DNA from: a virus
Reading direction: 5' to 3' (one strand)
Length of the DNA stretch: 64,000 nt
Virus record (IMG/VR): IMGVR_UViG_3300046787_000206
Coordinates: 30,963 to 94,962 of that record
The notes beneath the pieces are model-generated. The model did not search any database. It was given only the letters and a program-made list of their open reading frames with translations, and was not told the DNA's origin. How positions within the stretch are numbered: the first letter of the stretch is position 1; each line of letters starts with the position of its first letter. A program made the translations under genes and the position numbers. Below are positions 7,173 to 64,000 of the stretch, in pieces.

Positions 7173-7191
7173 CTCAACACAAACAAAGTTT

Positions 7192-36500: not shown

Positions 36501-36833
36501 ATGACAAAATCAGTAGGCCAAAAGGAATCCCAGAAGCACGAGAAACGAATCGCAAAAGCCATTGGAGGGCAAACCACGGCAGCTTCTGGGGCCTTCTGGT
36601 CCCGCAAAGGGGACGTACGCAGTGCGGACCTGCTTATTGAACACAAGTGGACTGGTAAGAAAACCAAAACTATCAGTGCACTAGAGCTAGAAAAAATCAC
36701 CAACGAGGCCATCATGGATGGTCGAACACCTGTTTTTGGGATTCACCTAAATGGAGAAGATTACGTAATCCTACTTGAAACGGACTTTCTTGAGATGGCC
36801 CGAGATTTAGGAAAACTAAACGTTAATGACTAA
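36501..36833 (+). CDS. Holliday junction resolvase-like PD-(D/E)xK nuclease
   Basis: HEKRIAK, SGA, KGDV, LLIEHK. Confidence 0.75.
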   Translation: MTKSVGQKESQKHEKRIAKAIGGQTTAASGAFWSRKGDVRSADLLIEHKWTGKKTKTISALELEKITNEAIMDGRTPVFGIHLNGEDYVILLETDFLEMARDLGKLNVND

Positions 36834-37197
36834 CTTCTTCAATGGAGAACACTGGACCTCGCAGTCAAACTGCGCAGGGATAGACACGGAAATATTCTTT
36901 CCACCTAGAGACAAAACTCAGTACAAAGTTATAGCTGACCAAGCAAAGGTCTACTGCTTCGGCGGTAGAGACCAGCAGGGTCAAGAAGTTCCTCCGTGCC
37001 CTGTTAGACTCAACTGTCTTTGGTACGCCATAGACGGAGACGAGCAGCACGGTATATGGGGAGGGCTCTCACATAGAGAGCGAAACGCCCTGGTACGTAA
37101 GTGGCAAAAGCAATACAAGAGCAGCATGACGCTGAAGGAATACGTCTTTCAGCTAAATAAGAAGGGCAAGTTATGGCAGTCATCAAGTCAGACCTAA
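36826..37197 (+). CDS. whiB: WhiB-family Fe-S transcription factor
   Basis: Four Cys, IFFP, GIWGGLSHRER. Confidence 0.9.
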   Translation: MTNFFNGEHWTSQSNCAGIDTEIFFPPRDKTQYKVIADQAKVYCFGGRDQQGQEVPPCPVRLNCLWYAIDGDEQHGIWGGLSHRERNALVRKWQKQYKSSMTLKEYVFQLNKKGKLWQSSSQT

Positions 37198-48415: not shown

Positions 48416-48510
48416 CACTTAGTTATTGCATTATTTGCAGACACCTATTGGAATTCGGTTTATGTACCGATGAAGATTGCACATGCGATTGTCCAGAGGA
48501 TAAATATTAG
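48412..48510 (+). CDS. 32-aa Cys-rich micro-protein; not in ORF track
   Basis: TTG start overlapping the NTase stop (TTGA), AGGA RBS; MTLSYCIICRHLLEFGLCTDEDCTCDCPEDKY. Confidence 0.55.
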   Translation: MTLSYCIICRHLLEFGLCTDEDCTCDCPEDKY

Positions 48511-48519
48511 GAACAGCCA

Positions 48520-49005: not shown

Positions 49006-50491
49006 AGTCATATTCGCTGGATGTGAAATTCCATCAAACCGCACACTACTGGAGCGTAGTGGAGTGGAGAATGTAATGTTGTCATACTGGGGCCTCCGTA
49101 AGCGTGGGTTGCCAAAGACAAAAGCGTACCTAATCGGAGAGCAGTTCGAACCCCACCTGAAGGTGTGGGTTGATAGTGGAGCAACGCAGGCAGACCAGGC
49201 AAACCTAAGTCGCCAAGAGCTGGAAGACTACGCCGCAGATTACGAAGAGTTTATCGCCATGAATTATGAGCGTATCGAAGGCTGGGTAGAGTTTGATTCC
49301 CAAGTTCTAGGTTTGCCGTGGATTCAGCAGCAGCGAGCAGCGTTCGAGAACGACCCGAAGATGTGGGTAGTGTGGCATGAGCAGTATAGTACCGCCCTCC
49401 TACAGAAGTGGGCAGAAGAATACCAAAACATAGCCATTACAGGGGCCGCAGTGGAGGCTGTGACGTCGCTGAGCGCCATTACACGGAGTCTAGGAGCAAA
49501 GTATCCAGTACAGTTCCATGGGCTCGCTGTGGCGAAGCCAGACAACCTCCGACAGATTCCATTTGCCACTACCAGCACATTAAGTTGGTTGTCACCAATG
49601 CGTCGTGGGGAAACAATTATATGGGACGGCATGAAGTTGGCCCGTTACCCAAAAAAGATGAAAGCCCAAGCACGACCAAGGTACAAGTCGGTAGTGGAGA
49701 AGGCTGGTTTAGATTTCAAGAAGTTCGTAGACGATGACACAACGGAAGCCACAAGGGTAGCCGTTTGGTCCTATTTACAGTTAGAGGTAGCAATGGATAA
49801 GGATAGACCTAAGTTCGGAGTCATCAAAGGTGGCAAAGTATCTGATAACAGTGATGACACCCTATACACTGGTTTGATGGAAATGGAGGGGTACCTGTCT
49901 AATAACAGTGACTCAGACATGCGGAAACTAGAACGGTCAGAAGTTATCGAAAGAGACCCATCTGAGGTAGTTTCAATGCCAGTTGTAGGCTACCAAATGA
50001 AGACCGTAGTAGAGACTGAAAATGGCATAGATGTACTAAAGGATGTCGCTGTTGTACAGTCTAATTCGACGTCGTTAAGACAGTGTGACACCTGTTTCGT
50101 AGCGGCAAACTGCCCCGCATTTAAGCCTCAAAACACCTGTGCGTTTAGTCTGCCAATAGAGGTAAAGACCCCAGAGCAGTTAAAGTCGTTGAATACCGCA
50201 TTATTAGAGATGCAGGCCCAGAGAGTAATGTTTATGCGGTTTGCAGAAGAATTGAATGGTGGATATGCGGACCCGAATGTGTCGCAAGAGATTGACCGTT
50301 ACCAAAAGATGTTAAAGAACATGAAGGAGTTGGATGAGCAAAAGGAGTTCATCCAAATCACTGGGTCACGTAGTTCGAGTGGCGGAGTATTGTCCGCTAT
50401 TTTTGGCGATAAAGTTCAAGCCATGAAAGAGTATCCAACACCGATTTCAGAGGAGCAAACTACGTACGTTATCAAAGATAAACTAGAGTAG
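48998..50491 (+). CDS. TGT/DpdA-like TIM-barrel protein fused to a Cys4 helical C-terminal domain
   Basis: MLSYW, VWVDSGA, EFD, VVWH, FHGLA, STLSW motif order; C-terminal CDTC...CP...C. Confidence 0.6.
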   Translation: MSKVIFAGCEIPSNRTLLERSGVENVMLSYWGLRKRGLPKTKAYLIGEQFEPHLKVWVDSGATQADQANLSRQELEDYAADYEEFIAMNYERIEGWVEFDSQVLGLPWIQQQRAAFENDPKMWVVWHEQYSTALLQKWAEEYQNIAITGAAVEAVTSLSAITRSLGAKYPVQFHGLAVAKPDNLRQIPFATTSTLSWLSPMRRGETIIWDGMKLARYPKKMKAQARPRYKSVVEKAGLDFKKFVDDDTTEATRVAVWSYLQLEVAMDKDRPKFGVIKGGKVSDNSDDTLYTGLMEMEGYLSNNSDSDMRKLERSEVIERDPSEVVSMPVVGYQMKTVVETENGIDVLKDVAVVQSNSTSLRQCDTCFVAANCPAFKPQNTCAFSLPIEVKTPEQLKSLNTALLEMQAQRVMFMRFAEELNGGYADPNVSQEIDRYQKMLKNMKELDEQKEFIQITGSRSSSGGVLSAIFGDKVQAMKEYPTPISEEQTTYVIKDKLE

Positions 50492-50549
50492 TTTTATCTG
50501 ATAACAGTGTTACTCACGACATGAATCGTGTTGGACCTGTATATAGGGG

Positions 50550-50588
50550 GGTGTGGCCCCAACACAAACAACTGTGTTAGGGCCCACC
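50550..50588. terminator. Hairpin between convergent operons
   Basis: GGCCCCAACACA / TGTGTTAGGGCC imperfect stem. Confidence 0.55.
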
Positions 50589-50592
50589 TCCT

Positions 50593-51117
50593 TTAGTTTT
50601 TATACCCTGCTACTAGACGGCGTAGGCTACCAGAGAAAGAGTCTTTGGTTACTCCAGCCATGTCAGCTAACTCAGCCAAACTAAGGGTGGGGTTGTCTAA
50701 ACGTAGCTGTGCTGCTTTGAGAGTTGCTTCAGGCACATTACCATTAGCTAACTTAAGTGCGGCTTCAATCTTGCCCCTGGCCGCTTCACCAGACTTTGCA
50801 GCACGTAGGCTGTTAGACCTTGCTAACGCAATCTCCTTGTTACCTGTCTTAGGTAGTTCGTCCTCATGAATACGGCGCTTTGTACGCACACGACGAACGA
50901 CGCCCGTACGCTCTGATGTAGTGAGGCCTCCCCAAATACCCTCGTACTGATTGTCTATTGCTACCTGCAGGCAGTCAAACTTGATGCTGCAAGTAGCGCA
51001 TACCTTCTTGGCACGCTCTACTGTTCCGTAATAATCAGTAAACGGCTCAGGGAAAAACAACTCTGGGTCAGCGTTCTTACACGCAGCCTGAGTCATGTCT
51101 AACTCTTCTATGTTCAT
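50593..51117 (-). CDS. WhiB-family domain fused to WhiA-like C-terminal HTH
   Basis: N-terminal AAC..ADPELFFP, C..C.....C, GIWGG; C-terminal VPEATLKAAQLRLDNPTLSLAELA...TKDSFSGSLRRL matches the WhiA HTH pattern. Confidence 0.8.
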   Translation of the reverse strand: MNIEELDMTQAACKNADPELFFPEPFTDYYGTVERAKKVCATCSIKFDCLQVAIDNQYEGIWGGLTTSERTGVVRRVRTKRRIHEDELPKTGNKEIALARSNSLRAAKSGEAARGKIEAALKLANGNVPEATLKAAQLRLDNPTLSLAELADMAGVTKDSFSGSLRRLVAGYKN

Positions 51118-51338
51118 CGGCGCTTTGCCTTTCTTGATAGTTCAATGAATCCGTTATTTCTTAAATCTCGTTTTATGTTTTTCAAGGCACGGATGTCCGA
51201 AGGGGTTTGCGCAGAGAAAAAGAACCTTCCTAATGGAGATTGCCATTTAAAATGGCCTCCATTAGTTAGTTCTACCTGCCAACCTTGCTCTCTTGCTTGT
51301 CTTACTAGCAAGGATAGTTCTTTGTTACTTATCTTCAT
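51114..51338 (-). CDS. HicA-like (dsRBD-fold) toxin candidate
   Basis: GWQVELTNGGHFKWQSPLG...TPSDIRALKNIKRDL; ATG 51338 is the more plausible start. Confidence 0.6.
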   Translation of the reverse strand: MKISNKELSLLVRQAREQGWQVELTNGGHFKWQSPLGRFFFSAQTPSDIRALKNIKRDLRNNGFIELSRKAKRR

Positions 51339-51492
51339 AATGCTGTTCTTTCCATGCCTCATACATGTTGTCGCAGGCACATGGGTAGTAGTTGCATACG
51401 CTACACAACTCTTCGTGCTCCGTGCACTCCTGTTCACAATCCTCGCACTCGTCACAGGCCAGGTTGTTATCCATCCAGTCATTCCATCCCAT
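51325..51492 (-). CDS. 55-aa acidic protein with 8 Cys; not in ORF track
   Basis: MGWNDWMDNNLACDECEDCEQECTEHEELCSVCNYYPCACDNMYEAWKEQHYEDK. Confidence 0.6.
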   Translation of the reverse strand: MGWNDWMDNNLACDECEDCEQECTEHEELCSVCNYYPCACDNMYEAWKEQHYEDK

Positions 51493-51497
51493 GATTA

Positions 51498-51671
51498 CTA
51501 GATGCCCTTTACTGCTTCAATTGCTTCTGAAATGGTAAGCACGTTAGCCATAGAGTACTCGGTGTCAGTAGCGTCGTTAGACTTCATTGACTTGAACATG
51601 GCAACTACTTCTTCTTGCATTACTTTCTTACCCATACGGATACCCTGGGCTAGAGTTTCTGATTCAGTCAT
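51498..51671 (-). CDS. 57-aa hypothetical protein; not in ORF track
   Basis: AAGGA RBS; MTESETLAQGIRMGKK... Confidence 0.6.
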   Translation of the reverse strand: MTESETLAQGIRMGKKVMQEEVVAMFKSMKSNDATDTEYSMANVLTISEAIEAVKGI

Positions 51672-51846
51672 TTGTTTTTTCCTTTACTTGTCCATAGGTG
51701 AACACTTGTTTATGTAACTCGTTATATATTTTGGCTAGTTCCTTGCAGGCCTTCCATTCACCTGCGTGTGTGTATGCTGACTCTGCCTGCTTGAGTGCAG
51801 GGAACAGCAACTCTACCTGTTGCTTAGTTAGTTCTAGTTCAATCAC
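51664..51846 (-). CDS. Hypothetical protein
   Basis: AAGGAG RBS; overlap-coupled. Confidence 0.65.
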   Translation of the reverse strand: MIELELTKQQVELLFPALKQAESAYTHAGEWKACKELAKIYNELHKQVFTYGQVKEKTND

Positions 51847-52217
51847 AACTTATCTCCTTCTAGCCATACCTTGAATGATGCTTTATCAATCTCCCGAAGG
51901 TCATACGCCATCTTCTTAGCGGCATCCTGAAGGTGGCTTGCAGCTGCTTGCCAGCCTTTCTTGTAAGCCTTGGTTTCTTTGGCACCTGCTTCAGGATTTG
52001 CGGTCAACTCTGCAACTTGTGCTTCTAGTTGAGTAATGCGAGCATTCCGTTTAGCCAGGGTTGCTTGCAGTCCTTCAATGTGAATGTGCAGGTTTTCTAA
52101 CTTCATGTCTTGCTTACTAGGTGGTCCATCACGCCATTCATCGAAACTAATGCCGCATAGACCACAACGGTTGGCTTCTTTGTCTTCTTGTGTTACATAC
52201 ATGTGGTCGCAGTTCAT
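51843..52217 (-). CDS. Zn-finger plus coiled-coil protein
   Basis: CDH...CGLC then heptad repeats. Confidence 0.7.
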   Translation of the reverse strand: MNCDHMYVTQEDKEANRCGLCGISFDEWRDGPPSKQDMKLENLHIHIEGLQATLAKRNARITQLEAQVAELTANPEAGAKETKAYKKGWQAAASHLQDAAKKMAYDLREIDKASFKVWLEGDKL

Positions 52218-52390
52218 TTGTTCTTCTCTTCTCTTATATATCGTTCAATAACTTCTTGGGTAGCCGCATAGCGGTAGTCATCTTTATCCCAACGGTTTAC
52301 ATACTCACCATCAGGTGTAATGCCAATACTCCAACCGTCGTACACTCCACGGACTTCTATGAGGTATACATAGTCTTCTATTAGGCTCAT

Positions 52391-52621
52391 TTACTTCTCT
52401 CCTTTGATAAGAGCGATAAGCCCTTGAGTGTAGCCCCCATCGCTCAGCCCATATTTGCTGATGATGTCCTGTAGCAGTTTAATAATTCGCTGTTCTGCTA
52501 AAGACTCTCCATAACAGACAGGGCATACATCTTCATCTACATTAGTGAAGTCCCAGCCATGCTCATCACACACATACCAAGTAGAGTGCTTACCTACTAC
52601 CTCACGCATACGTTCAGCCAC
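52391..52621 (-). CDS. Small zinc-binding protein
   Basis: CDEH...CPVC; AGGAG RBS. Confidence 0.7.
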   Translation of the reverse strand: MAERMREVVGKHSTWYVCDEHGWDFTNVDEDVCPVCYGESLAEQRIIKLLQDIISKYGLSDGGYTQGLIALIKGEK

Positions 52622-52775
52622 GTTTATCTCCTATCATCCATAAGATAATACTTACACTAACTAGTACTACTGACAATGGCCAGGCATTACCGTCTATAGC
52701 CATTCCCCACACACCTACGAAGCCTACGCCTACGGCTAAGCCACGCCACACGGCTTGTTTGTGTTGGCTCATCAT
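52614..52775 (-). CDS. 53-aa two-helix membrane protein; not in ORF track
   Basis: GAGG RBS; MMSQHKQAVWRGLAVGVGFVGVWGMAIDGNAWPLSVVLVSVSIILWMIGDKRG. Confidence 0.6.
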   Translation of the reverse strand: MMSQHKQAVWRGLAVGVGFVGVWGMAIDGNAWPLSVVLVSVSIILWMIGDKRG

Positions 52776-52947
52776 GCCTCGTTCACATAGTAGTTACCAG
52801 TCAAGCCCTCGGACTCTGTGTCGTATTCGATATAGGCAAGTTCTCCCATTACAACCTTGTGTGCGGTGTCATAAGCGTCGTCTACGTTGTCTGCTTCTAC
52901 TTCTACTCTATGAGATATCAACTCATAGATGATTACTTCGTACTCCA

Positions 52948-53163
52948 TCACTCTGTTTCTACTTCATACTCTCCGTATACCTTGTGGTATGGGAAGTCAT
53001 CTTCTTGTTCTTCAATCCACACACGACTGATTTCTCCGCCATCCATGTCTTTAGTCCAGTCGTCAATCCATGCTTGTGCATCCGCTTCGTTATCGAATAT
53101 GGGTGCGTAACGTACATCTCCAGGACCATCACAATCTATGGCCCAAATTACAAACTTACTCAT
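52948..53163 (-). CDS. Small acidic protein
   Basis: AAGGAG RBS; TAATG coupling. Confidence 0.7.
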   Translation of the reverse strand: MSKFVIWAIDCDGPGDVRYAPIFDNEADAQAWIDDWTKDMDGGEISRVWIEEQEDDFPYHKVYGEYEVETE

Positions 53164-53429
53164 TAGTTGTTCTCCTTTACTAGTTCGTATACCATCTCTT
53201 CAAAGTTAGTGGCTTCACCGTTGTTGTCAAAGAAGTAGCACCCATCTTCCAGTGCCTTATACATCCACCCTGCGTCTACGTCGCAAGGAAACTCTTCGAA
53301 GATAGGCTCTAGCGCTTCTTCTTCTATGCGAGTCAAGTACTTGCGGTTCTTCATTACCTTGTTAGACCAGAACTCTGCGCTAATACGTGCAGTGCTTTCT
53401 TCTACATCAAAGGTTATGTACTTATCCAT
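53163..53429 (-). CDS. Small acidic protein
   Basis: GGAGG RBS. Confidence 0.7.
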   Translation of the reverse strand: MDKYITFDVEESTARISAEFWSNKVMKNRKYLTRIEEEALEPIFEEFPCDVDAGWMYKALEDGCYFFDNNGEATNFEEMVYELVKENN

Positions 53430-53595
53430 TACTCATCCTCCATTACATCGAAGTCCCACTTGTTATCTACAATGTGGGGTTCAAAGTCATCAGCAATCCA
53501 TTCGCTAATGAACTCTAGCGCCCCCTGTTCATCTTCTGCTTCTACTTCAATCTCATAAGTAGTTGTTCTATATGCTTCTATTAGGTACTTAGCCA

Positions 53596-53829
53596 TTAGT
53601 TGTGCTCCTCTAGGTATGTATAGATTTCTTTAAGTAGTTCTGATGTGGTTAGGTCAAGTGCATTGGCCATACACTCTAGTAGTTCGCTTGATGCTCCCTT
53701 CTTACCTGTCTCTACTTCGGACCAATGTCCAATAGAGATGTACCTACGCCCTGCGGCTTCTCGCAAGGTAAGCCCTTGTTCTGTGCGAATTTTGCGCACT
53801 GTTGCTCCTATAGCGGTTTGTAGTTTCAT
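53596..53829 (-). CDS. XRE-family HTH regulator resembling actinobacterial ClgR
   Basis: AIGATVRKIRTEQGLTLRE...SIGHWSEVETGKKGASSELL. Confidence 0.8.
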   Translation of the reverse strand: MKLQTAIGATVRKIRTEQGLTLREAAGRRYISIGHWSEVETGKKGASSELLECMANALDLTTSELLKEIYTYLEEHN

Positions 53830-53831
53830 AA

Positions 53832-54098
53832 TTAGTCCTTGTCTACTAGGTGCTGACCTTCTAGTTGAGTACTAGACAACTTACAGATTTGACACTTACC
53901 TGTAAAGATGCGGTGTACGTTCAGGTTAAAGTGCTGGGCTAAGTCCATGCGCTCGCTGGATAGGCACTCATCAATCAACTTGAACATGCTATCTGTCCAG
54001 TGAGTTGTAGGGATAATGATGTGCGAAGTGCCTGCTTCTAGCGTTAGGTTATCTCGCTTACCCCAGTTACCGTTAGATTGAAAATAATACTGCGACAT
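53832..54098 (-). CDS. Hypothetical protein
   Basis: AAGGAG RBS. Confidence 0.7.
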   Translation of the reverse strand: MSQYYFQSNGNWGKRDNLTLEAGTSHIIIPTTHWTDSMFKLIDECLSSERMDLAQHFNLNVHRIFTGKCQICKLSSTQLEGQHLVDKD

Positions 54099-54177
54099 TA
54101 CTGCTCCTTTACAATGTGAATGAACTTGAAGTTATCTTCAGTTACTAGTGGTGTGCCACCTAAGGTGGCTTGTTTTA

Positions 54178-54531
54178 TTAGTTCAACTGCTGTTCGTTCA
54201 TCAGTTGCTGTGATTTTAAGTTCGCTGTATGAACTAACTCCGTCAACATGGAAGACGTAGACTGCCATGACTCCTCCTCTACCTTTGTATTTTTAGGTGG
54301 TACTTGTTTAGTAGCGACAGGTTTTGCTTTAGGTTTTGTCGCTGATTTTTTCTTCAACGCTGGCTTAGTTAATACCTTGTTGTGCTTAGCGTTGTACTCC
54401 TTAGTGAATAGAGTCATGTCTACGTGGCATAGACAATGGCAAGTGATTGGTTTGCCATACTCAAACTCTTTTGTACAGTTAGTGTGTTGCTCTATGTCCA
54501 TGTCTGGTAAACACCAGCCGAATAAAGCCAT
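54178..54531 (-). CDS. Cys/His N-terminal domain plus Lys-rich linker protein
   Basis: GGAGG RBS; GWC...H..C...CHCLCH. Confidence 0.7.
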   Translation of the reverse strand: MALFGWCLPDMDIEQHTNCTKEFEYGKPITCHCLCHVDMTLFTKEYNAKHNKVLTKPALKKKSATKPKAKPVATKQVPPKNTKVEEESWQSTSSMLTELVHTANLKSQQLMNEQQLN

Positions 54532-54561
54532 GATTGCCTCCTATAGGTTTGTTTGTGTTGG

Positions 54562-56499
54562 CTAGGCAGTCGCAAGGTTGCGAGCGATACCTACCTTGAC
54601 TAGTCGCTTGGCTAGACCGAACAACTGACTAGCCTCATTGACTAGCACTGCTACCTCGCAACCGTGAGTGTCAATAGTAATCTCGCTACGACTACGCTTG
54701 TAGTTCGGACCGTAATCAGCGTAACGCTCGTTCCACCAGTCGGTGTCATCTACATAGGCTAGTGCTGTAAGCACACCGCCCTTACGCAACTGACGCACGA
54801 TGTTGTCACACTCGTCACGCTGTGACCATGCTCCATCAGTAATGGAGATGATTAACTTAACGGCTCGCCTAGACTCGGCAAGAACATACTTGGCATACTT
54901 GAGAGCCTTGAGTGGCTCGGTGCCACGACCCATGTCAGTAACACGCTTCTGGTATGTAGCACGTTCATTGGCTGAGTAAAGAACACGTGCCGCATCGTCA
55001 AAGGCAATGACTGTAGTAGAGGCGTTGATTTTATCCATAGCCCGCTTGATAGCCCACATGTTGTCGTAAGCCTTGTTGATAGTCCATGACATAGAAGGAG
55101 ATGTGTCTAATAGAATGACACACTCAATGTCTACTGCGTCTTCACGACCTAGTTCCCAACGGTCAAACGCTTCGTCTACGTCACAACCAACACCGTAGCG
55201 TAGGACATTGAGTTTGCCACTGTCTTGACGCTTGTCCCACGCTGGGTCGTACTCACCCTTAAGCAACTCTAGTTCGCCACCGAATGACTTGGAGGCGGTG
55301 ACTGCTTCGAATGGCACGTCACTGTTGTATGACTCAGCCTTAGTAGGAGTAGCGACAGCATTGCTACTAAGTTCTGCTTCGCCATTGAACTGACGTATGG
55401 TGTTGTCAATGTCGTCAGACAACCTGTCCATAGCGTTGTAGAGCGTGTCTTCTAGAAGTTCATCTAGAATCTCACGGTCTTGACGGTTGTCGTCACCACG
55501 ACCTGCTTGCTTGCTACTGGCATCACTGTCAGGGGTAGGAGTGCGGTCTGACTGACCCTCTGATTGCTCGCTGTCAGACTGCTCTGACTGCTGACGTTTC
55601 ATACGGTCAATGATGTCTTGCTGTTCGCCCTTAGACATAGGCTTGCTAGTAGAGGAGGACTTGAGTTCGCCCTCTTTGCGCTGGTCGTGACCACTAGGGT
55701 CTTGGATACGTTGCCAACCAGTTGCTCGGTCATAAGCGTCAGTAGGGTTTGCTGGCTGTAGTTGCTTGACTAGTTCGTCATAACGCTGGATAAGTGGCTG
55801 TGCTAGGTTACACTGCGCTGGGTCAGCAAGGTTGAGCATTACGTACTGGTCTACGATAGATGTCATCTCCGACACACTGGCTGGGTCTTCGTATACCTGA
55901 GCGACAGCGTTACGCAACTCTATAGGCAGGTACTTACGACCTACGATGATAGGGAACGCTACTGAATACTGCTTAGGGTTGTTGAGCAAGTGCTGAGCAA
56001 TAAGAGCGACCATCCACTCGGTAATGCTTGGATACTTAGTGGTCATCATGGTCTCGATACGCATGTCTTCTAGCGCATTGAACGAACGCCATAGGTCATT
56101 CTGACGAACCCAAGTGCCTAGGTTAGAGCCAACACGAGGAGTCATAAGAATGTGGCAAATCTCGTGGAGAGATAGACCCTTGATAGCAGTAATAACCTTA
56201 GGGTCATTCAACTTACCTAACTTGCCAGTAGCAAACCAGATGTTGTCTGCGTCAGACCAAGCAGGTGCTGGAGCATTGAAGTCAGCGTCTAGGTGAACCT
56301 TGATGTGACGGAGAGTAAGGGTGCTAGCAAACTTACTGACTACCTGTGCCATACGGAGCATACGCTCGTGGTCACGATTGAGTGTGCCTGTATTAGACAA
56401 GGTAATAGTAGTTCCTACAGGAACTTCTATAGGCTCTGGCTCTGCGAATAAATCATCACCCTCGATGTCTAGTTCTAGAGGGTCTGTAAAAGCGGTCAC
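54562..56499 (-). CDS. vWA-domain protein with N-terminal HExxH metallopeptidase-like domain (CobT-like)
   Basis: HEICH and NALED; acidic linker; MIDAS DTSPS and ITDG; GTG 56499 has an AAAGG RBS. Confidence 0.85.
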   Translation of the reverse strand: MTAFTDPLELDIEGDDLFAEPEPIEVPVGTTITLSNTGTLNRDHERMLRMAQVVSKFASTLTLRHIKVHLDADFNAPAPAWSDADNIWFATGKLGKLNDPKVITAIKGLSLHEICHILMTPRVGSNLGTWVRQNDLWRSFNALEDMRIETMMTTKYPSITEWMVALIAQHLLNNPKQYSVAFPIIVGRKYLPIELRNAVAQVYEDPASVSEMTSIVDQYVMLNLADPAQCNLAQPLIQRYDELVKQLQPANPTDAYDRATGWQRIQDPSGHDQRKEGELKSSSTSKPMSKGEQQDIIDRMKRQQSEQSDSEQSEGQSDRTPTPDSDASSKQAGRGDDNRQDREILDELLEDTLYNAMDRLSDDIDNTIRQFNGEAELSSNAVATPTKAESYNSDVPFEAVTASKSFGGELELLKGEYDPAWDKRQDSGKLNVLRYGVGCDVDEAFDRWELGREDAVDIECVILLDTSPSMSWTINKAYDNMWAIKRAMDKINASTTVIAFDDAARVLYSANERATYQKRVTDMGRGTEPLKALKYAKYVLAESRRAVKLIISITDGAWSQRDECDNIVRQLRKGGVLTALAYVDDTDWWNERYADYGPNYKRSRSEITIDTHGCEVAVLVNEASQLFGLAKRLVKVGIARNLATA

Positions 56500-56540
56500 G
56501 ATGTGCCTTTCTATAGGTGCGGAATGTTTGTGTTGGAGCC

Positions 56541-56572
56541 ACACCCTAGGTAACTACTGCTACCTAGGGTGT
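56541..56572. promoter_or_regulatory. Intergenic hairpin between AAA+ and vWA genes
   Basis: ACACCCTAGGTA / TACCTAGGGTGT perfect 12-bp stem, loop ACTACTGC. Confidence 0.65.
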
Positions 56573-56581
56573 GTATAGCAA

Positions 56582-58009
56582 CTACTTGACTGAGTATGCG
56601 CCAGTAGAGACGTTGAGTTCCTGAGCAATCTTGTCGAACTCAGCGTCAAAGCGCATCTTGAGAGCCTCACGCTCACCGTCAGACTTAGGGAACGCATTGA
56701 GTAGTGCGGTCACTGCGAACTCAAAGTTAAGGTTGGTAGCCTGAGCAATGAAGTTCTTAAGCAAGCGGGTAGACATAGGTACTGAGAACTGGTCGCTCAT
56801 CTCGCTAGCCTGACGGATACTGTTAGCGAACAACAGCAAGGTAGGTGACTTGATGAACTTGGATTCAATCTTGTCGTCATACTTGAACTCCAACTTGACG
56901 TTGAAGCGGTCTAGTAGGGCGTTGTCCTGACGAACTGTGCCTGTATAACCTAGACCTGTGTTCTGGTCAGCAATAAAGATACATTCTGGGTGAACCTTGA
57001 TGACCTCGTTGAGTGGCTCGATAAGCAACTCACGCTCTTGTAGCAGACGTAGGAACAACGAAGCAGACTTGGCGTTCATACGGGTCAACTCGTTGATAAG
57101 GATTACTGACGGCTGTTGAATGGCTGTTGCCAACTGTGAGTAAGTCCAGCGCATACTGTTACCTACACCAGTTGGAACGTAACGACCCTGAGTAATACTC
57201 TGGTCAATCTGCTGTGTACATTCGATAGTGACGAACGGCAGGTTGTGCTTAGCGGCATAGTTTCTAGCACTACTGGTCTTACCTGTGCCAGCGTCACCAG
57301 TGAGTAGCACGTTCAACTGTGACTTGTGAGCCCAAGCGTATACCTGTGACTCCGTAACGCCGTTCCACTCACGCTCATAGTATTCTTCTACATCAGGTGT
57401 GTGTAGCACCGCTTGTGTAGTAACTTCTGTGGCTGGTGGAGAGATTAGTGTAGTCATCTCCATAACATTCTCCTTTACTGGTTCTGTAGTAGTGATGGAC
57501 AAGCCCATCAACTTGTCACGCAACTCTTCTAGCGTCTCCATAACAGGTTCGTCTACTGGCTCTACTACGGTCTCTACTACAGGCTGTGGTGTTACCTGAA
57601 TAGACGGGCTAACTACTACTGGTGACATAGCCTTGGTGTATTTCATAAGGCTTGCTGGGCTAGTTACTGCGTCACTCAAGATGTCGGTGTATACCTGCCC
57701 TAGAGTGTTAGGTGCTAGGACATACGCTTCATCTTTTACCTGACGCACTAGTTTCTGCATCAAGGTAGTAGGTGTTAGAGGGAACTGTAGGTCTCGGTAG
57801 TCACTAGGCGTAATGGAGATAGCCTTAGGGACACCTACAATGAACTCGTCTAGTGCTACTGCGTCAGGTGCGGTCTCTGACCAAGCCCCTGAGACACCAC
57901 GACCACCACCTACACGATTGAACACTCGGACTGACTTATCCATAAGTGGAACTACTGCGGTCTGTCGAACTCCATAAGGAGACTGCGACTGGATTATAAC
58001 TGCGAACAT
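56582..58009 (-). CDS. MoxR/CobS/CbbQ-type AAA+ ATPase
   Basis: GDAGTGKT Walker A, ILINE Walker B variant, ALLDRF arginine finger; likely start ATG 58009. Confidence 0.85.
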   Translation of the reverse strand: MFAVIIQSQSPYGVRQTAVVPLMDKSVRVFNRVGGGRGVSGAWSETAPDAVALDEFIVGVPKAISITPSDYRDLQFPLTPTTLMQKLVRQVKDEAYVLAPNTLGQVYTDILSDAVTSPASLMKYTKAMSPVVVSPSIQVTPQPVVETVVEPVDEPVMETLEELRDKLMGLSITTTEPVKENVMEMTTLISPPATEVTTQAVLHTPDVEEYYEREWNGVTESQVYAWAHKSQLNVLLTGDAGTGKTSSARNYAAKHNLPFVTIECTQQIDQSITQGRYVPTGVGNSMRWTYSQLATAIQQPSVILINELTRMNAKSASLFLRLLQERELLIEPLNEVIKVHPECIFIADQNTGLGYTGTVRQDNALLDRFNVKLEFKYDDKIESKFIKSPTLLLFANSIRQASEMSDQFSVPMSTRLLKNFIAQATNLNFEFAVTALLNAFPKSDGEREALKMRFDAEFDKIAQELNVSTGAYSVK

Positions 58010-58025
58010 ACTATTACTCTCTTTC

Positions 58026-58217
58026 TTATAGGGTGTTGCTGGTTTTGTTTGTGTTGGCACGCTCTGCGAGGAACTCTCGTAGAACTTCAGCGTAGATAGC
58101 GGCAACTTCTACATCTTCTAGATTCACTAGGTCACCGTCAGTCTCCTGTGGTCTGCTATCTACAGGTGGTAGGTAGGGCTCCATTAGACTCTTGATGAGT
58201 TCAATTGGGTCTGTCAT
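58026..58217 (-). CDS. Hypothetical protein
   Basis: AAGGAG RBS; ATGA overlap. Confidence 0.65.
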   Translation of the reverse strand: MTDPIELIKSLMEPYLPPVDSRPQETDGDLVNLEDVEVAAIYAEVLREFLAERANTNKTSNTL

Positions 58218-59020
58218 ACTGTCTCTCCTTCTAGTTGTGTTACTACATACTCAGGCTCATACTGCTTAGTGAGTAGTTCTACTCCAGCAATGGGGTCATA
58301 GCCTGAGAGGTCATTGGTTACTGCTTGCTGTGCGTCTTCTGCGCTACGAGCCTTAACAGTAAAGGTGGATACTAGTTTGACTTCGTATACTGTGTCGAAT
58401 GTCTTGCCAGGGCAATCGTCATACCAGTCATCAACATCATCAGTTTGCGAGCAATAGCAAGAGTCCACACGGTCAAGGTCTACATAGTCTTGGTGACTGC
58501 CTGGAATGTCCCACTCTTTAGTAGGGGTATAGACTCCGTTGTTATTCTTAGCCTCTGCGCCCCAGCCCTGCTCTTCTTCATAGGAGAAGTCAATGTCTAG
58601 AGTAGGGAACTGCTCACAGATAGCGTGGAACACTTCAATAGGAGCGCCCCAAGGACTGTCGAAGGTAACGCTTACAGACGCTCGGTTCTGGTCATCTCTA
58701 TAGATGTCTAGGTCAGCACTACCAGCATCCCACTTGACTCCCCAGTTAGAGCAGTTCCAGTTATACCAGTTGAACTCTGTATCACCTGTTCTGGTGAAGC
58801 CGCCTTTACCATCAGCCTTACTACCATTGGTCTCGTGATACTCGTCTCGGTGCTCTCTATCTAGAGTGATGAATGAGTGGTATGAGAACGACTTACCTGA
58901 CTCCCAGTCATCATCATTTAGAAACTCAGGCTTACTAGAGATGAGAGTAATAAATCGCTCCATCTCCTCTAGGTCGTTAGGTCCTGCTACCTGAACGCTG
59001 TTGTATACCCAGTTTGGCAT
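58214..59020 (-). CDS. DUF1281/YubB-like ferredoxin-fold protein
   Basis: MPNWVYN, WYNWNCSNWGVKWD, FDSPWGAP motifs. Confidence 0.8.
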   Translation of the reverse strand: MPNWVYNSVQVAGPNDLEEMERFITLISSKPEFLNDDDWESGKSFSYHSFITLDREHRDEYHETNGSKADGKGGFTRTGDTEFNWYNWNCSNWGVKWDAGSADLDIYRDDQNRASVSVTFDSPWGAPIEVFHAICEQFPTLDIDFSYEEEQGWGAEAKNNNGVYTPTKEWDIPGSHQDYVDLDRVDSCYCSQTDDVDDWYDDCPGKTFDTVYEVKLVSTFTVKARSAEDAQQAVTNDLSGYDPIAGVELLTKQYEPEYVVTQLEGETV

Positions 59021-59142
59021 TACTTGCTCCTTCTAACTAATACTGCCTGCCATACAGACAGTTGAATGACTACTAGGCTAATGAGCCTGATGAGCCAAGT
59101 GTTTAGTGTGTGGTTATAGCGGTGTTTGTGTTGGTTGCTCAT
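59020..59142 (-). CDS. 40-aa hydrophobic peptide; not in ORF track
   Basis: GGAGGAG RBS; MSNQHKHRYNHTLNTWLIRLISLVVIQLSVWQAVLVRRSK; TAATG overlap. Confidence 0.55.
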   Translation of the reverse strand: MSNQHKHRYNHTLNTWLIRLISLVVIQLSVWQAVLVRRSK

Positions 59143-59205
59143 AGCGTTGCTCCTCCATCTAGTTCTTACGAACTAATGCGCTCTCACTCATAGAGAGCAC
59201 ACTAG

Positions 59206-59250
59206 AAAATAAGAACGCCCCTGCTACACGTCTGTATAGCAGGGGCTTCT
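59206..59250 (-). terminator. Intrinsic terminator
   Basis: GCCCCTGCTA / TAGCAGGGGC stem with U-rich tail on minus strand. Confidence 0.7.
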
Positions 59251-59257
59251 CTCTTAC

Positions 59258-59740
59258 TTATAGTGATGCGGTAATACGGTTGAACTCACTCACAGTGAAC
59301 TTAGTGCCTACTTCGATACAAGATAGCCACTCAATAGAGTTCTTTAGGTCGTGAATAACCTGGTCTACTGACTGCGTGCGCCCCTGACGGTCATACATAC
59401 GAGGGAACTCTACATACTTACGCTCTGGGTAAGTGTATAGGGTGTCCCAGTCAGGCTCGTTGTTCAAGACATCACTAGGTAGACGGAACTCTACTGTAGT
59501 GTCTCCACGATAGTTCTTACCCAGAGATAGGCTCTCTAGGTTGGCAGGCTTACGAAGATACTGCTTGATAGACCCTACTGCCCACTTGTGATACTCCTTC
59601 TTACGAGTCTCACGAATAGAGTCAGTCTCCTTACGGTAGTCCTCGTCATACTGCTTCTGCTCTGCCTGTAGTTTCTCTAGTAGAGCGATTTTTGCCTTAG
59701 CCTTGGCTATAACTGCTGGAAGGTTCATTTCGATTGCCAT
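59258..59740 (-). CDS. Hypothetical protein
   Basis: AAGGAG RBS. Confidence 0.75.
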   Translation of the reverse strand: MAIEMNLPAVIAKAKAKIALLEKLQAEQKQYDEDYRKETDSIRETRKKEYHKWAVGSIKQYLRKPANLESLSLGKNYRGDTTVEFRLPSDVLNNEPDWDTLYTYPERKYVEFPRMYDRQGRTQSVDQVIHDLKNSIEWLSCIEVGTKFTVSEFNRITASL

Positions 59741-59768
59741 TGTGTATCTCCTTAGTTGTTGTTTGGTG

Positions 59769-60059
59769 TTACTTGGTTACTTTTAGCCCACGGCGGGCAA
59801 TGCCAGTGTGAATACTTGTGGTCACACTGAACTTCTTGTCTGTTACCCAGATGTTTCTAGAGGTAACTACATCATTGTTCTCGTCATAGTCCTGTGTATA
59901 GGTGACTGTGGCGATAGGTTCGGCGTATGACATAACTACATACTGCCTAACGCTGTCTATAACGGTGTTATAGCCTCTTAGAGAGCCTGTAGAGAGGATA
60001 AAGTCTTGCTCATTAGCCACACGCTCTACAGCGTCTTTACGGTTTACTTTGATGCTCAT
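59769..60059 (-). CDS. Hypothetical protein
   Basis: AAGGAG RBS; SYAEPIA...FSVTTSIH motif. Confidence 0.75.
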   Translation of the reverse strand: MSIKVNRKDAVERVANEQDFILSTGSLRGYNTVIDSVRQYVVMSYAEPIATVTYTQDYDENNDVVTSRNIWVTDKKFSVTTSIHTGIARRGLKVTK

Positions 60060-60092
60060 TGTTTTGCTCCTTATAGGTTTGTTTGTGTTGGG

Positions 60093-60443
60093 CTAGCCGT
60101 AGATTACTTCACCGAAGCACGCTACTTGAATGATTACGTCATAGACTTCGCTATCCATACGGTGTGCGTCTTCGTAGTTCATAAGGTCTAGGGCGATAGC
60201 GTCTACTATGTCTGACCTAATGGCTACTTCTCTATCTAATAGAGACTGGATAGCCTTAGTAATGTCTGAGTAGTGAACTACATAGACCTTTCCATCTTCT
60301 CCATCAGTGATGGTATATGTCTGTGCGTCTTCGTCTACTACGGCTTTAGTTGCCCAGTAGTGGATACCATAGCCAGCCCCCTCAATGATGTCTTCAATCA
60401 TCTCGTGGGTTACTTCTACGTTCATACGGACTACATAAGTCAT
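60093..60443 (-). CDS. Acidic hypothetical protein
   Basis: GIHYWA...DVIIQVACFGEVIYG motif. Confidence 0.75.
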   Translation of the reverse strand: MTYVVRMNVEVTHEMIEDIIEGAGYGIHYWATKAVVDEDAQTYTITDGEDGKVYVVHYSDITKAIQSLLDREVAIRSDIVDAIALDLMNYEDAHRMDSEVYDVIIQVACFGEVIYG

Positions 60444-60542
60444 TAGTTACTCTTTCCTGTTACTTCTAGGCAGACGACACAGATTTGGTATAGGTCGCCA
60501 AGTTCTAGGTCGTCTACTGGGTCAATGAATGTGTGAATGTGC

Positions 60543-60755
60543 TTAGGCATACATAACCTTCATCTCGTAGTCATAGGCATAACGCTCTGCGTCACTCCAA
60601 GCCATCTCTCCATAGAACAACTTGGTCTTCTTATCACTGGTTACTACCTTGAAATAGTCATCATCAAAGACTGCTGTGCCTACATAGATGCTGTAGTCAT
60701 TCGTCTCGTCTTGTAGTTCCCACTCTTTTACTAGGGCTACGCTCGGCTTGCTCAT
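60543..60755 (-). CDS. Hypothetical protein
   Basis: AAGGAG RBS. Confidence 0.7.
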   Translation of the reverse strand: MSKPSVALVKEWELQDETNDYSIYVGTAVFDDDYFKVVTSDKKTKLFYGEMAWSDAERYAYDYEMKVMYA

Positions 60756-60882
60756 TACTTGCTCTCCTTCTTGAATAGGGCTACGGCTTCACGCTTGGTG
60801 TAGCCATAGTATTGCTTAGTTACTAAGTAGCCGTTCACTACGTCACTAATGACATAGGCACCGCTATAGTTCTTCTCTATGC

Positions 60883-61068
60883 TCACTTGTTCATCTCCTT
60901 TACATAGGCTAGACGGCGTAGTGCCTGCTCTAGTTCATACCTGACTCCTGTTACAGCCTCGTCTAACTGTGCCGTAGGGTGCCCAGCCATAGTTCTTAGG
61001 CTTAGATACTGGGATAACTTACGCTGTAACCCTGCTATCTGTGCTTTGACTTCATCTTCTTTATACAT
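60883..61068 (-). CDS. Hypothetical helical protein
   Basis: AAGGAGG RBS. Confidence 0.7.
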   Translation of the reverse strand: MYKEDEVKAQIAGLQRKLSQYLSLRTMAGHPTAQLDEAVTGVRYELEQALRRLAYVKEMNK

Positions 61069-61309
61069 AACAGCCTCCTTAGGCTATACATAAAACGCCC
61101 CTGCCGAGTGGCAGAGGCTATGGGGGGGTCTAAGGGGGGGCTACGCCCTCCCCTTTAGAAGAAAAGACCTGTGATGGTCTTTAGAAGAGAGAGAAGAATA
61201 ACTATAGAGAAGAAACACATAGATAGATACATACTCTCTCCCTTGGCTTGTGTGACTTATAGGTGCCGTTTGTTTGTGTCGGTCACCTATAGCCCAAGAA
61301 CTTCTAGGT

Positions 61310-61520
61310 CCTCCTTTAGGACTTGCTCTTGGTCTTTGTGTGGGTGTCTTCTAGAGGAGAGTTAGCCCACTCTTCAAACTTCTTACTGGCTTCCTCATAG
61401 CATTCAGGACAAGAAGGAACATACCTGTGAATGTCCTTTACCTCTATAGAGCAGGCTTGGTTACACTCGATACATACGTATTGAAACATCTTGACCTCCT
61501 TTAGGTCTTGCTCTTGGTCT
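61310..61520. repeat. 26-bp direct repeat flanking the zinc-ribbon gene
   Basis: CCTCCTTTAGG(A/T)CTTGCTCTTGGTCT at 61310-61335 and 61495-61520. Confidence 0.85.
61316..61489 (-). CDS. 57-aa zinc-ribbon protein; not in ORF track
   Basis: AAGGAGG RBS; MFQYVCIECNQ...SCPECYEE. Confidence 0.7.
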   Translation of the reverse strand: MFQYVCIECNQACSIEVKDIHRYVPSCPECYEEASKKFEEWANSPLEDTHTKTKSKS

Positions 61521-61532
61521 CTCCAAGAAGCA

Positions 61533-61565
61533 GAAAACCCTACCAGCAGGGGATACTGATAGGGC
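61533..61565 (-). terminator. Probable intrinsic terminator
   Basis: Minus strand CCCTATCAG...CTGGTAGGG-TTTTCT. Confidence 0.55.
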
Positions 61566-61658
61566 TTCCTATTACTTGGTATTAGTGAAGGGGGGGTCTG
61601 TTTGACCTGGTCTTACCAGCCATTGACCCCCCCTATCACTTTGGCAGTAGCCTAACTA

Positions 61659-62096
61659 CTAGCCAAGTAGGGCACGAAGGTCTTTAGTTGCTAGTGAGAA
61701 CTTCTCACCGTTAGCAACTTTGCCCTTCTGAATCTTGCGGAGAACATCCCACGCTTCGCCCTGCTCTGCCAATAGGGCAGGGGTCTCTTCGATAGCCCAA
61801 ACAGTGCCAGTCTTCTCGTTGACGCCAGCCTTAGCCTTAGTGGCTAGGGTGTTAAGGGCTACCATAGCAACCTTGCTAAGGGTCATTAGAGAGCCGTCGG
61901 CAAACTCGAAGTGGGTCTGCTTAGAGTAGGCAATGGCTTCGGCGTTCTGAGCCTTAGCAAAAGACGCCTTGGCTTCGGCTCGCTCGGCTATAACTTGGAA
62001 CGAGATGTTACGGGTCTGCTCATCCTGAGACTTGCTTAGAGTCTTGACGGTAGCGTCATCTAGAGATGAGACGATTTCAATGGTCAATAGAGACAT
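61659..62096 (-). CDS. Ala/Lys-rich hypothetical protein, first gene of the minus-strand operon
   Basis: 145-aa ORF with TAGGT RBS-like sequence. Confidence 0.75.
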   Translation of the reverse strand: MSLLTIEIVSSLDDATVKTLSKSQDEQTRNISFQVIAERAEAKASFAKAQNAEAIAYSKQTHFEFADGSLMTLSKVAMVALNTLATKAKAGVNEKTGTVWAIEETPALLAEQGEAWDVLRKIQKGKVANGEKFSLATKDLRALLG

Positions 62097-62119
62097 TATG
62101 TAACCTAACTGTTAGTGAA

Positions 62120-62600
62120 CGAATGGGGTTATGGAGTCATAGCCCCTAACCCGCCACCCTAGGGGGATAGGGTGACGAGATAGCGGTTATGGTTACTAGG
62201 GGGGCAGGGATAGCACGGGTTAGGTGATAGCAAGTTAGGCGAACCTAAGCCCTGCCCCCTAGCAACGGTATAGACACGGCGTTAGCCGTGAATAGGTCAC
62301 TAAGTCATAGGGTTGCCTAGCACAGTCATTAGCGGAATGGTCACGCTAGAGGTCATCAGGGCATAGGTTGCCCGAACGCCTATCGGCTAGGGGGGTCAAG
62401 CCAGTGGACAACAACTAACTACTGCCTAGTTGCTCTCAATCACTCGGTGTTGATTAGTTGAACACTAACAGACCCCTAATCTGATAAGTGACTACCCCTG
62501 CCATAGGGCATCAACCGCAATGGTGACGGGGAAGTGGCCAGGTGAGAAACACGGTTGGGGCCTATCAAGTCAAGGCAGTAGCCTAAACAGGGGTAGTCAA
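62120..62600. ncRNA. Candidate large structured non-coding RNA (strand unresolved)
   Basis: No ORF in the track; at least eight consecutive or nested stems and a loop complementary to a distal 8-mer. Confidence 0.5.
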
Positions 62601-62633
62601 GATGGCTAAGAGGGCTGTGATAGCATAAGTGAC

Positions 62634-62828
62634 ATGAATGAACTATTTACTGCCGCCACTGGCTATAAAGCAGACCCGCTCCACTTCGCTATGCTCGACT
62701 TGTACGTACGAGCGGGTGCCGAGGGAGACATCCTCGAACAGATTGCTGACATGAGCACGTTCTACCCTGAGCCAGACTTGGCCGAGGTGGGCTTTGTTGT
62801 CGTCTGGGACGCCATGCTGAAGGGCTAA
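62634..62828 (+). CDS. Hypothetical protein, probably leaderless
   Basis: TAGCAT-N7-ATG upstream. Confidence 0.55.
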   Translation: MNELFTAATGYKADPLHFAMLDLYVRAGAEGDILEQIADMSTFYPEPDLAEVGFVVVWDAMLKG

Positions 62829-62990
62829 GTGTCGCTTTTCCCCAAGGAACAAACACCCGTTTTCGTGCGTACGGACGAATTGCTTACACTACAGGGCCCC
62901 CTGTATACAATTCGTACGCCTTTTCGTGAGTACTGACTAATTTTTCAAAGTTAGCCCTAAAACGCCCCAGCTCCCTGCCATACTATCTTC

Positions 62991-63239
62991 ATGAGTAAAT
63001 TTACTAAGAGCCTCAAGACCAGTGTCACCAACGGAGCTTTGGGTACAGCTGCAGTCACCACGGCCATGACCCCAGACCACGGGAACCCTTTGGTCAATCT
63101 TGCCGTAGGTGCAGTCGCTGGAGGTGTCGTCGCAGGGGTTCACAAGTTCATCAACTACGACTCATCGAAGCCTGCGACCAAGTCAATGTTCCAGGAAGAG
63201 CCAAAAGGCAACCGAAATCTAGGCAAGCAGTTCAAGTAA
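62991..63239 (+). CDS. Small Gly/Ala-rich, possibly membrane-associated protein
   Basis: Hydrophobic GxxxG-like segments; followed by terminator. Confidence 0.6.
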   Translation: MSKFTKSLKTSVTNGALGTAAVTTAMTPDHGNPLVNLAVGAVAGGVVAGVHKFINYDSSKPATKSMFQEEPKGNRNLGKQFK

Positions 63240-63260
63240 GCCAAATCAGCTGTTTTTAAC

Positions 63261-63300
63261 GAAAAATGCCCTCACAGGATGACTGTAGAGGGCATTTCTC
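63261..63300. terminator. Bidirectional terminator between convergent genes
   Basis: AAATGCCCTC-ACAG / CTGT-A-GAGGGCATTT. Confidence 0.7.
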
Positions 63301-63395
63301 TTATATGGGTGAGTGATTGGTCATTCGAGGGGTCAAATGGTCACCACGAGGCGCATGTGGCGGCTCAGGCCACTCATCTCAAGGCAGGGGCGTTC

Positions 63396-63884
63396 TTAGG
63401 GTAAAAATTCTTCCAAATGCTTCTTTTCGAGCAAAACTGCCACCGCAGCGTTGATTCCGAGCTTAAATTCGTCAGAAAATTCGTCTCCGACTTCAACAAG
63501 CTGCTCTTGGAGGATTTCAAGGTCGTACATACTTCCACCAGCAGCATTCTTTTTGCAGAGAGAAGCAAACCTCTGTAGAGCATCACCTTCAAAGGTGACC
63601 GTAGTCTTCATGTTTTGGCCTTGAGCACCAGCCGTGATTTCAATCTCCGTGGCTGTTAGGCGCAACATAGCGTTAAGCGCATCCATAGGGATGAGCGCAT
63701 CAGGCTTTAAACCCATCGGAATATTGTTAGTAAGCCAGTTTGACCAGGTGTTGGGGTCTACTACGCTCTTGTTGCTCTGGTTTAGGTGTACATGAGCGCC
63801 TGAAGAAGGCTGCTTTGAGCCAGGGTGGACATCTTGGCCCTTGTGAGCCGATTTGAAGGGTGGGAACTCCATGCGTTTTCTCAT
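63396..63884 (-). CDS. Hypothetical protein, leaderless
   Basis: 162-aa ORF starting 6 nt after a -10 hexamer. Confidence 0.7.
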   Translation of the reverse strand: MRKRMEFPPFKSAHKGQDVHPGSKQPSSGAHVHLNQSNKSVVDPNTWSNWLTNNIPMGLKPDALIPMDALNAMLRLTATEIEITAGAQGQNMKTTVTFEGDALQRFASLCKKNAAGGSMYDLEILQEQLVEVGDEFSDEFKLGINAAVAVLLEKKHLEEFLP

Positions 63885-63920
63885 AAAGCTAGGTTACAGG
63901 GGCGTTTTACGGGTTGTCAA
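63885..63920 (-). promoter_or_regulatory. Sigma-A-type promoter for a leaderless mRNA
   Basis: Minus strand TTGACA-N18-TAACCT-N6-ATG. Confidence 0.75.
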
Positions 63921-64000
63921 GGGGCGATTAAGGGTAAAATTGGCCTCGTCGGGAAAAAATGCCTCGTCGTCGGATAGGAACTCATGGCACAGAATAACTT

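Follow-up and report, generated by a model that had tools for sequence, protein, structure and literature searches.

A single-chain fusion of a WhiB-like domain and the WhiA C-terminal helix-turn-helix encoded by an uncultured actinobacterial phage

Introduction

WhiA and WhiB are normally two separate actinobacterial proteins which jointly switch on cell-division genes, and both are essential regulators of cell division in Mycobacterium tuberculosis and Streptomyces; the mechanism of their cooperation was reportedly resolved only in 2023. To our knowledge, all the WhiB-like (Wbl) proteins studied dock on the principal sigma factor at its region 4.

In Streptomyces venezuelae (8DY7/8DY9), the N-terminal domain (NTD) of WhiA links WhiB with the WhiA C-terminal domain (CTD), and the contact of this NTD with the beta' dock is needed for activation; the orientation and spacing of the GACAC sites vary, owing to a long linker (PMC10243135). 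Other described systems combine a Wbl domain with a DNA-reading or promoter-reading module, or bring it into a phage: WhiB7, a Wbl domain with an AT-hook (7KIF/7KUF), which activates by means of the Wbl domain and this DNA tether (PMC10243135); WblP of plasmid SCP1, a Wbl domain joined to a sigma factor of the ECF type and the only fused form in a review of the Wbl proteins (PMC6282962); and the stand-alone WhiBs of phages such as mycobacteriophage TM4, whose WhiB is described as a dominant negative regulator of whiB2 (PMC8612146, PMC10202952). WhiA is unmentioned in a survey of the actinophage WhiBs (PMC8612146). Here we analyse a protein (P0001) encoded by an uncultured actinobacterial phage, in which a Wbl domain is joined to the C-terminal helix-turn-helix (HTH) of WhiA.

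Results

Domains of the fusion protein

The stretch of DNA analysed (64,000 nucleotides, the window) corresponds to bases 30963-94962 of a 94,962-bp IMG/VR record rated 99% complete by CheckV. The fusion ORF lies on its minus strand, exactly where the first-pass annotation had placed it, and encodes 174 aa:

50593 to 51117, minus strand: whole ORF of P0001 (Wbl domain, linker, WhiA-type long helix and HTH)
50905 to 51093, minus strand: Wbl ([4Fe-4S]) domain, residues 9-71 (Pfam Whib, PDB profile, Foldseek)
50845 to 50904, minus strand: end of a basic helix and flexible linker, residues 72-91 (RRVRTKRR..., followed by an acidic/Pro/Gly segment)
50746 to 50844, minus strand: long helix, residues 92-124, the counterpart of the "LH" of WhiA (about residues 216-250 in S. 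venezuelae; PDB profile, AlphaFold2, PMC10243135)
50605 to 50730, minus strand: three-helix HTH, residues 130-171 (Pfam, HMM alignment to 8dy9_I, conservation, mutagenesis data of PMC10243135)

Pfam places Whib (PF02467) on residues 9-71 (63.7 bits, E 2.3e-17, cut-off 23.6) and HTH_WhiA (PF02650) on residues 98-169 (34.5 bits, E 2.9e-8, cut-off 27), next to the boundaries proposed in the first-pass annotation (about 8-72 and about 95-172). The WhiB domain is complete, as had been claimed, with four Cys (C13, C40, C43, C49) and GIWGG at residues 60-64, and there is an FF pair at residues 21-22; the C-terminal peptide quoted in that annotation is also present in P0001. The C-terminal half is not a generic HTH lacking a preference for WhiA, a possibility which had been raised: the other HTH families are far weaker in Pfam (MarR_2 is the next best with 16.5 bits, HTH_Crp_2 reaches 13.2 bits), and WhiA is the sole non-Wbl family among the PDB profile matches. 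The Sigma70 families (region 2, region 4) gave no Pfam match on P0001 even at E-values up to 10.

The LAGLIDADG-like N-terminal domain of WhiA, described from the start as dropped, was not detected in P0001 by Pfam, and the full-length WhiA model TIGR00647 (NCBIfam) scores 20.8 bits against a cut-off of 44.1, covering profile positions 226-299 only; consequently, P0001 is a bearer of the WhiA CTD, not a WhiA. The PHROG models match the Wbl half only. No AT-hook RGR(P) motif follows the Wbl domain, where the sequence reads RRVRTKRRIHEDE...; the appendage of P0001 is an 80-residue, putatively sequence-specific HTH, in contrast to the short minor-groove AT-hook of WhiB7.

Structural comparisons

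When all PDB sequences were searched with a profile built from the six closest homologues (A1), only Wbl proteins and WhiA were matched, and no other HTH protein. The Wbl matches were S. venezuelae WhiB (8dy7_H, E 1.5e-15), WhiB1 (5oay, E 2.3e-15), WhiB3, WhiB4 and WhiB7; the WhiA matches were residues 216-302 of the S. venezuelae protein (8dy9_I, E 2.1e-12) and the Thermotoga maritima protein (3hyi, E 4e-7). What in S. venezuelae is divided between two proteins (87 and about 330 aa) is found here in one phage polypeptide, which lacks the LAGLIDADG-like NTD and hence its contacts with WhiB, the beta' dock and omega.

The AlphaFold2 model, based on a 64-sequence alignment (mean pLDDT 92.9), consists of the Wbl domain, a low-confidence linker (residues 81-90, pLDDT 59), a 33-residue helix (92-124) and three short helices (130-171); in this model, the predicted layout of the C-terminal half is the "long helix plus HTH" of WhiA. 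The pTM is 0.58, and the model therefore assigns no fixed orientation to the domains; the linker also differs in length between homologues. Foldseek searches of the PDB returned, in this order, WhiB1:SigA4 (6onu, TMt 0.82), WhiB and WhiB3 (TMt 0.77-0.82 for WhiB1, WhiB and WhiB3), then WhiA (3hyi and 8dy9_I), before all the other HTH proteins. WhiA was the only non-Wbl family below E 0.1; sigma-4 domains were among the weak matches, ranked under WhiA.

Conserved contact residues

The four Cys of the Wbl domain are retained throughout the 64 fusion proteins assembled (three invariant, the fourth in 63), and F21, F22 and W62 are conserved in at least 90% of them. The FF pair and the W of GIWGG, which lie beside the cluster, form the sigma-A4 interface in the solved Wbl complexes (WhiB1:SigA4 structures). 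The conservation of these three aromatic residues suggests that P0001 may bind region 4 of sigma-A.

On the DNA-reading side, mutation of R266, L274, K287, R293 or R295 of S. venezuelae WhiA impairs sporulation septation, the R293 mutant having a partial phenotype: R266 is a backbone contact, L274 positions K287, K287 contacts the G opposite a C of the motif, and R295 makes a base-specific contact (PMC10243135). In the alignment of A1 to 8dy9_I, the equivalents in P0001 are R139 (R266), L147 (L274), K158 (K287), S164 (R293) and R166 (R295), with N102 corresponding to the long-helix contact N229. Four of the five mutationally validated DNA-contact residues are thus kept, the equivalent of R293 being Ser. 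The same four are invariant in the six close homologues; among the 64 fusion proteins, the R266 position is Arg in 59, L274 is Leu in 45, K287 is Lys in 57 (Arg in a further 7), R295 is Arg in 55 and N102 is Asn in 60. Since the GACAC-reading residues of WhiA are kept, we infer that the HTH should read a GACAC-like site; the specificity may differ from that of WhiA because R293 is replaced by Ser.

Family size and distribution

Word-based searches retrieved seven fused relatives (44-50% identity). An exhaustive profile search was then made over 1.84 billion cluster representatives; among the best 150 matches taken, 57 were matched by both the N-half and the C-half HMMs in the same order (proteins of 159-260 aa), and the architecture occurs in at least 64 clusters at 50% identity. 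Pfam finds Whib in all 64 fused proteins and HTH_WhiA in 60 of the 64 (best E 4.6e-15); one member scores as Sigma70_r4 and another as HTH_3. An assembly or frameshift artefact is ruled out, because 63 other non-redundant proteins have both halves in the same order.

The distribution of the family points to viruses. Nine out of ten fused proteins whose sources were traced came from metagenome collections only (Logan, ENA, JGI), and the tenth is an NCBI record from a Pseudolysinimonas MAG (WP_449056040.1) named "DNA-binding protein WhiA", which is a misnomer. The ESM Atlas holds a 57-member cluster, automatically named for both domains and 100% viral. The N half of P0001 is 45-47% identical to the WhiBs of Microbacterium and Mycobacterium phages, whereas the C-terminal half of the fusion, unlike the phage-borne Wbl domain known from stand-alone WhiBs, had no match in 50,697 GenBank phage records (tblastn with four diverse members, at least 80% query coverage required). 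PF02650 was matched in 236 of 401 Actinomycetota genomes, exactly once per genome, the matches listed being canonical WhiA frames of at least 300 aa or frames truncated by the end of a contig; the 401 genomes yielded no additional HTH_WhiA copy, fused or otherwise, and the outcome is independent of the two unpublished genomes (G271 and G321) included in this tally. The search of viral contigs with A1, P0020 and P0004 gave one fused locus only, on an 8-kb contig (L002); the metagenome scan for relatives of the fusion gave plain WhiBs only among the matches listed, and the genome-contig scan with P0040 gave plain WhiBs and one true WhiA. Searches of limited sensitivity brought up no short protein consisting of the WhiA-type CTD alone.

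In a quick, poorly resolved CTD tree, the cellular WhiA CTDs form one group, separate from all the fused CTDs, a grouping compatible with a single capture without proving one; the phage CTD scores best against WhiAs of the class Actinomycetes with a TKDA[VI]AG recognition helix. Full-text literature searches retrieved no paper describing the Wbl-WhiA(CTD) architecture. The first-pass annotation had considered that such a fusion might prove to be common and already characterised: the family comprises at least 64 clusters and is already labelled by automatic pipelines, but no paper characterising it was found. The fusion combines two well-known modules and is not unique, yet it is undescribed in the searchable literature, and the family appears to be virus-restricted, fairly diverse and uncharacterised.

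Several related architectures were encountered in these searches. Two metagenomic proteins (P0023, 487 aa; P0039, 569 aa) carry 6-7 tandem repeats resembling the WhiA C-terminal HTH, without a Wbl domain (HTH_WhiA 101-108 bits); P0066 combines Whib, HTH_3 and a WhiA-like CTD; P0031 has two Whib domains; and ESM Atlas clusters of about 130-140 aa join Whib to HTH_23, HTH_7, HTH_8 or GerE. A Wbl domain with an appended HTH looks like a broader undescribed theme.

Genomic setting

The plus-strand genes run from the left end to window position 50491 and include those for the terminase, the portal and the major head protein, followed by replication and nucleotide-modification genes. A 13.4-kb minus-strand block runs from the right end down to 50593, the fusion being its last gene. 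The elements around the fusion, together with a second Wbl gene, are:

51114 to 51482, minus strand: ORF upstream of the fusion, without a Pfam match, whose stop overlaps the ATG of the fusion (ATGA)
50550 to 50588, between the convergent gene blocks: hairpin with a 17-bp stem (fold -43.9 kcal/mol, z -5.67)
36826 to 37197, plus strand: stand-alone Wbl gene, 123 aa (Pfam Whib, 57.6 bits)

The ATGA overlap suggests that translation of the fusion is coupled to that of the preceding ORF, and the hairpin is a probable bidirectional terminator. The stand-alone WhiB, already reported at 36826 by the first-pass annotation, shares only 32% identity with the N-terminal half of P0001.

Other features of this region were noted. 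The C-terminal 70 residues of the protein encoded at 51114-51482 (..GGHFKWQSP..TPSD..) resemble, by eye, HicA-type small RNA-binding toxins. Adjoining the fusion gene are genes for small proteins rich in Cys (CxxC) that end in ...IKGE(N)K, one at window 52391-52621 (minus strand) and three paralogues at L002:880-1380. An AAA_5 (MoxR-like) ATPase gene and then a gene for a 660-aa VWA-domain protein occupy window 54562-58105 (minus strand), with a hairpin and the 11-mer described below before each. At its two ends, the record has an imperfect direct repeat of ~600 bp (window 63403-64000 versus genome 1-583, L023:1-583) with 98% identity over 117 bp, 92% over 299 bp and a diverged middle; it could be a terminal repeat or terminal redundancy overlooked by the IMG/VR end-repeat test.

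Sigma-70-like promoters are depleted in window 50000-64000 (7 versus 16.7 expected), consistent with non-canonical promoters. A search for a T7-type RNA polymerase (PF00940), made with regard to the ...CCTATA[AG]G... elements, gave no match in the phage, and likewise none in the control genomes, and is accordingly uninformative.

Candidate target sites

GACAC is not enriched in the intergenic DNA of the phage: 6 of its 149 copies are intergenic compared to about 11 expected, and none of them stands in a convincing promoter geometry. A pair of GACAC ~26 nt apart lies in window 48416-48519, upstream of the gene starting at 48520; it is the sole intergenic pair of this kind and may be due to chance.

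Ten exact copies of the 11-mer CAACACAAACA are present in the 95-kb genome, where about 0.05 would be expected; one of them is at genome 18793 (L023:18793), and the window contains the following:

52756-52766, 54550-54560, 56525-56535, 58046-58056, 59123-59133 and 60080-60090, minus strand: exact copies of CAACACAAACA (candidate sites), each at a gene start or slightly upstream of one, in gene orientation
61271 to 61281, minus strand: one-mismatch variant CGACACAAACA, which reads CGACAC, the only copy with canonical GACAC and the most upstream in the minus-strand block
7175-7185 and 50560-50570, plus strand: further exact copies of CAACACAAACA, the latter inside the stem of the terminator hairpin

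Within the leftward block, a hairpin usually comes before the 11-mer, and CCTATA[AG] with a ribosome-binding site 3-14 nt after it. Its copies lie at -45 to +8 relative to the start codons; two are within coding sequence, in the first codons of small ORFs (..SQHKQ.., ..NQHKH..). Downstream of the major head gene, one copy comes after the hairpin. The 11-mer is absent from L002, the only other retrievable contig bearing the fusion; repeats found in that contig were rejected as sites, being the coding ends of paralogous small proteins. The placement of the copies and the one in the terminator stem are more in keeping with an element acting at the RNA level, or associated with starts, than with an activator site upstream.

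Discussion

P0001 is best read as a single-chain regulator, tethered to sigma-A region 4 and sequence-specific, which most likely redirects the sigma-A holoenzyme to phage promoters; we estimate the probability of this reading at roughly 0.55. It is favoured because the covalent link does the linking job of the WhiA NTD. In the mechanism proposed, the fusion would be produced from the end of the 13-kb leftward operon, as its last gene and by coupled translation; its Wbl domain would carry a [4Fe-4S] cluster and bind to region 4 of the host's principal sigma factor (sigma-A), the flexible linker of about 20 residues would lead into the WhiA long helix and HTH, and the HTH would recognise a GACAC-like sequence immediately upstream of the -35 region. 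The linker would thereby stand in for the WhiA N-terminal adaptor, making the protein a "mini WhiA/B", and the holoenzyme would be redirected to phage promoters without a good -35 element. The expected geometry, with the Wbl domain on sigma-A4 and the HTH on the DNA just upstream, is that of the S. venezuelae complex, and by analogy the fusion may functionally resemble WhiB7, although its linker is without an RGR-type AT-hook. WblP offers another parallel, since there too a Wbl domain is naturally joined to a promoter-reading module of the sigma-4/HTH type; in that case the partner is an ECF sigma factor, whereas in P0001 it is the WhiA CTD, with no Sigma70_r2 or Sigma70_r4 match. Activation by the WhiA/WhiB route is not assured, since P0001 is without the WhiA NTD and its beta'-dock contact. 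The lack of GACAC enrichment in the intergenic DNA of the phage and the replacement of R293 by Ser also count against the model.

This same absence makes dominant interference a serious rival, possible though we would give it the smaller share of our belief: the fusion would occupy sigma-A region 4 and the host GACAC sites without activating, shutting down the host WhiA/WhiB division regulon, with filamentation and perhaps superinfection exclusion as the outcome, effects reported for the WhiB of TM4. The beta'-dock contact of the NTD, essential for activation in S. venezuelae (PMC10243135), is missing from a protein which keeps the GACAC-reading residues; the TM4 WhiB provides a phage precedent as a dominant negative regulator of whiB2 (PMC8612146, PMC10202952); and the lack of GACAC enrichment at phage intergenic sites indicates that the targets may be in the host. 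Nevertheless, WhiB7 activates with a Wbl domain and a DNA tether, and the NTD is thus not generally required for activation by Wbl proteins (PMC10243135); moreover, the second, plain WhiB of the phage could fill the interfering role.

As a sub-case of the sigma-A-redirection model, the fusion might read CAACACAAACA, through an [A/G]ACAC core, at gene starts and so control its own early operon, which we regard as doubtful. The excess of copies over expectation, the six exact copies and one variant in gene orientation in the minus-strand block, the GACAC of the variant CGACACAAACA and the presence in AACAC of both C's of the K287-contacted motif speak for it. However, positions from -45 to +8, some in coding sequence, are a misfit with a site upstream of -35, and at 0-45 nt from the start codons the 11-mer leaves no room downstream for a -35/-10 pair, which also counts against the sigma-A-redirection model as applied to it; most copies follow hairpins and one lies in a terminator stem, pointing to an element at the RNA level; chance alone is estimated to give about 3-6% of random 11-mers an overlap of 4-5 nt with GACAC; and L002 does without the motif.

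It is improbable that P0001 is a classical DNA-binding protein acting independently of sigma (a repressor or operator binder with the Wbl domain as redox or NO sensor), or that its HTH mimics sigma region 4. In favour of such readings, the CTD of WhiA resembles sigma region 4 in structure and the two read overlapping motifs (PMC10243135), sigma-4 domains give weak Foldseek matches under WhiA, Sigma70_r4 and HTH_3 are each scored by a single family member, other Wbl clusters bear HTH_23, HTH_7 or GerE, and WblP joins a Wbl domain to an ECF sigma (PMC6282962). Against them, P0001 itself has no Sigma70_r4 match at E up to 10, and the family conserves the cluster-adjacent aromatics (the FF pair and the W of GIWGG).

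Returning to the sigma-A-redirection model, its most far-reaching form is speculative: the fusion would be a widespread, phage-only "portable promoter-specificity factor", plugging into host sigma-A region 4 and retargeting the holoenzyme to a phage-specific [A/G]ACAC-core element, here CAACACAAACA. If true, this would be a third actinophage route to the takeover of transcription, besides phage sigma factors and phage RNA polymerases, and a natural demonstration that the homing-endonuclease domain of WhiA is an adaptor only.

That WhiB occurs in nature joined to no more than the DNA-reading end of WhiA provides independent "Rosetta-stone" evidence, from genomes, for the WhiA-WhiB partnership, and supplies a ready minimal construct with which to ask whether the WhiA N-terminal domain does more than linking. 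The fusion may also serve as a compact, sigma-A-tethered DNA-binding scaffold for actinobacterial synthetic biology. Because the family is apparently virus-restricted and diverse, it may be a means by which actinophages in general redirect or jam the transcription of their hosts.
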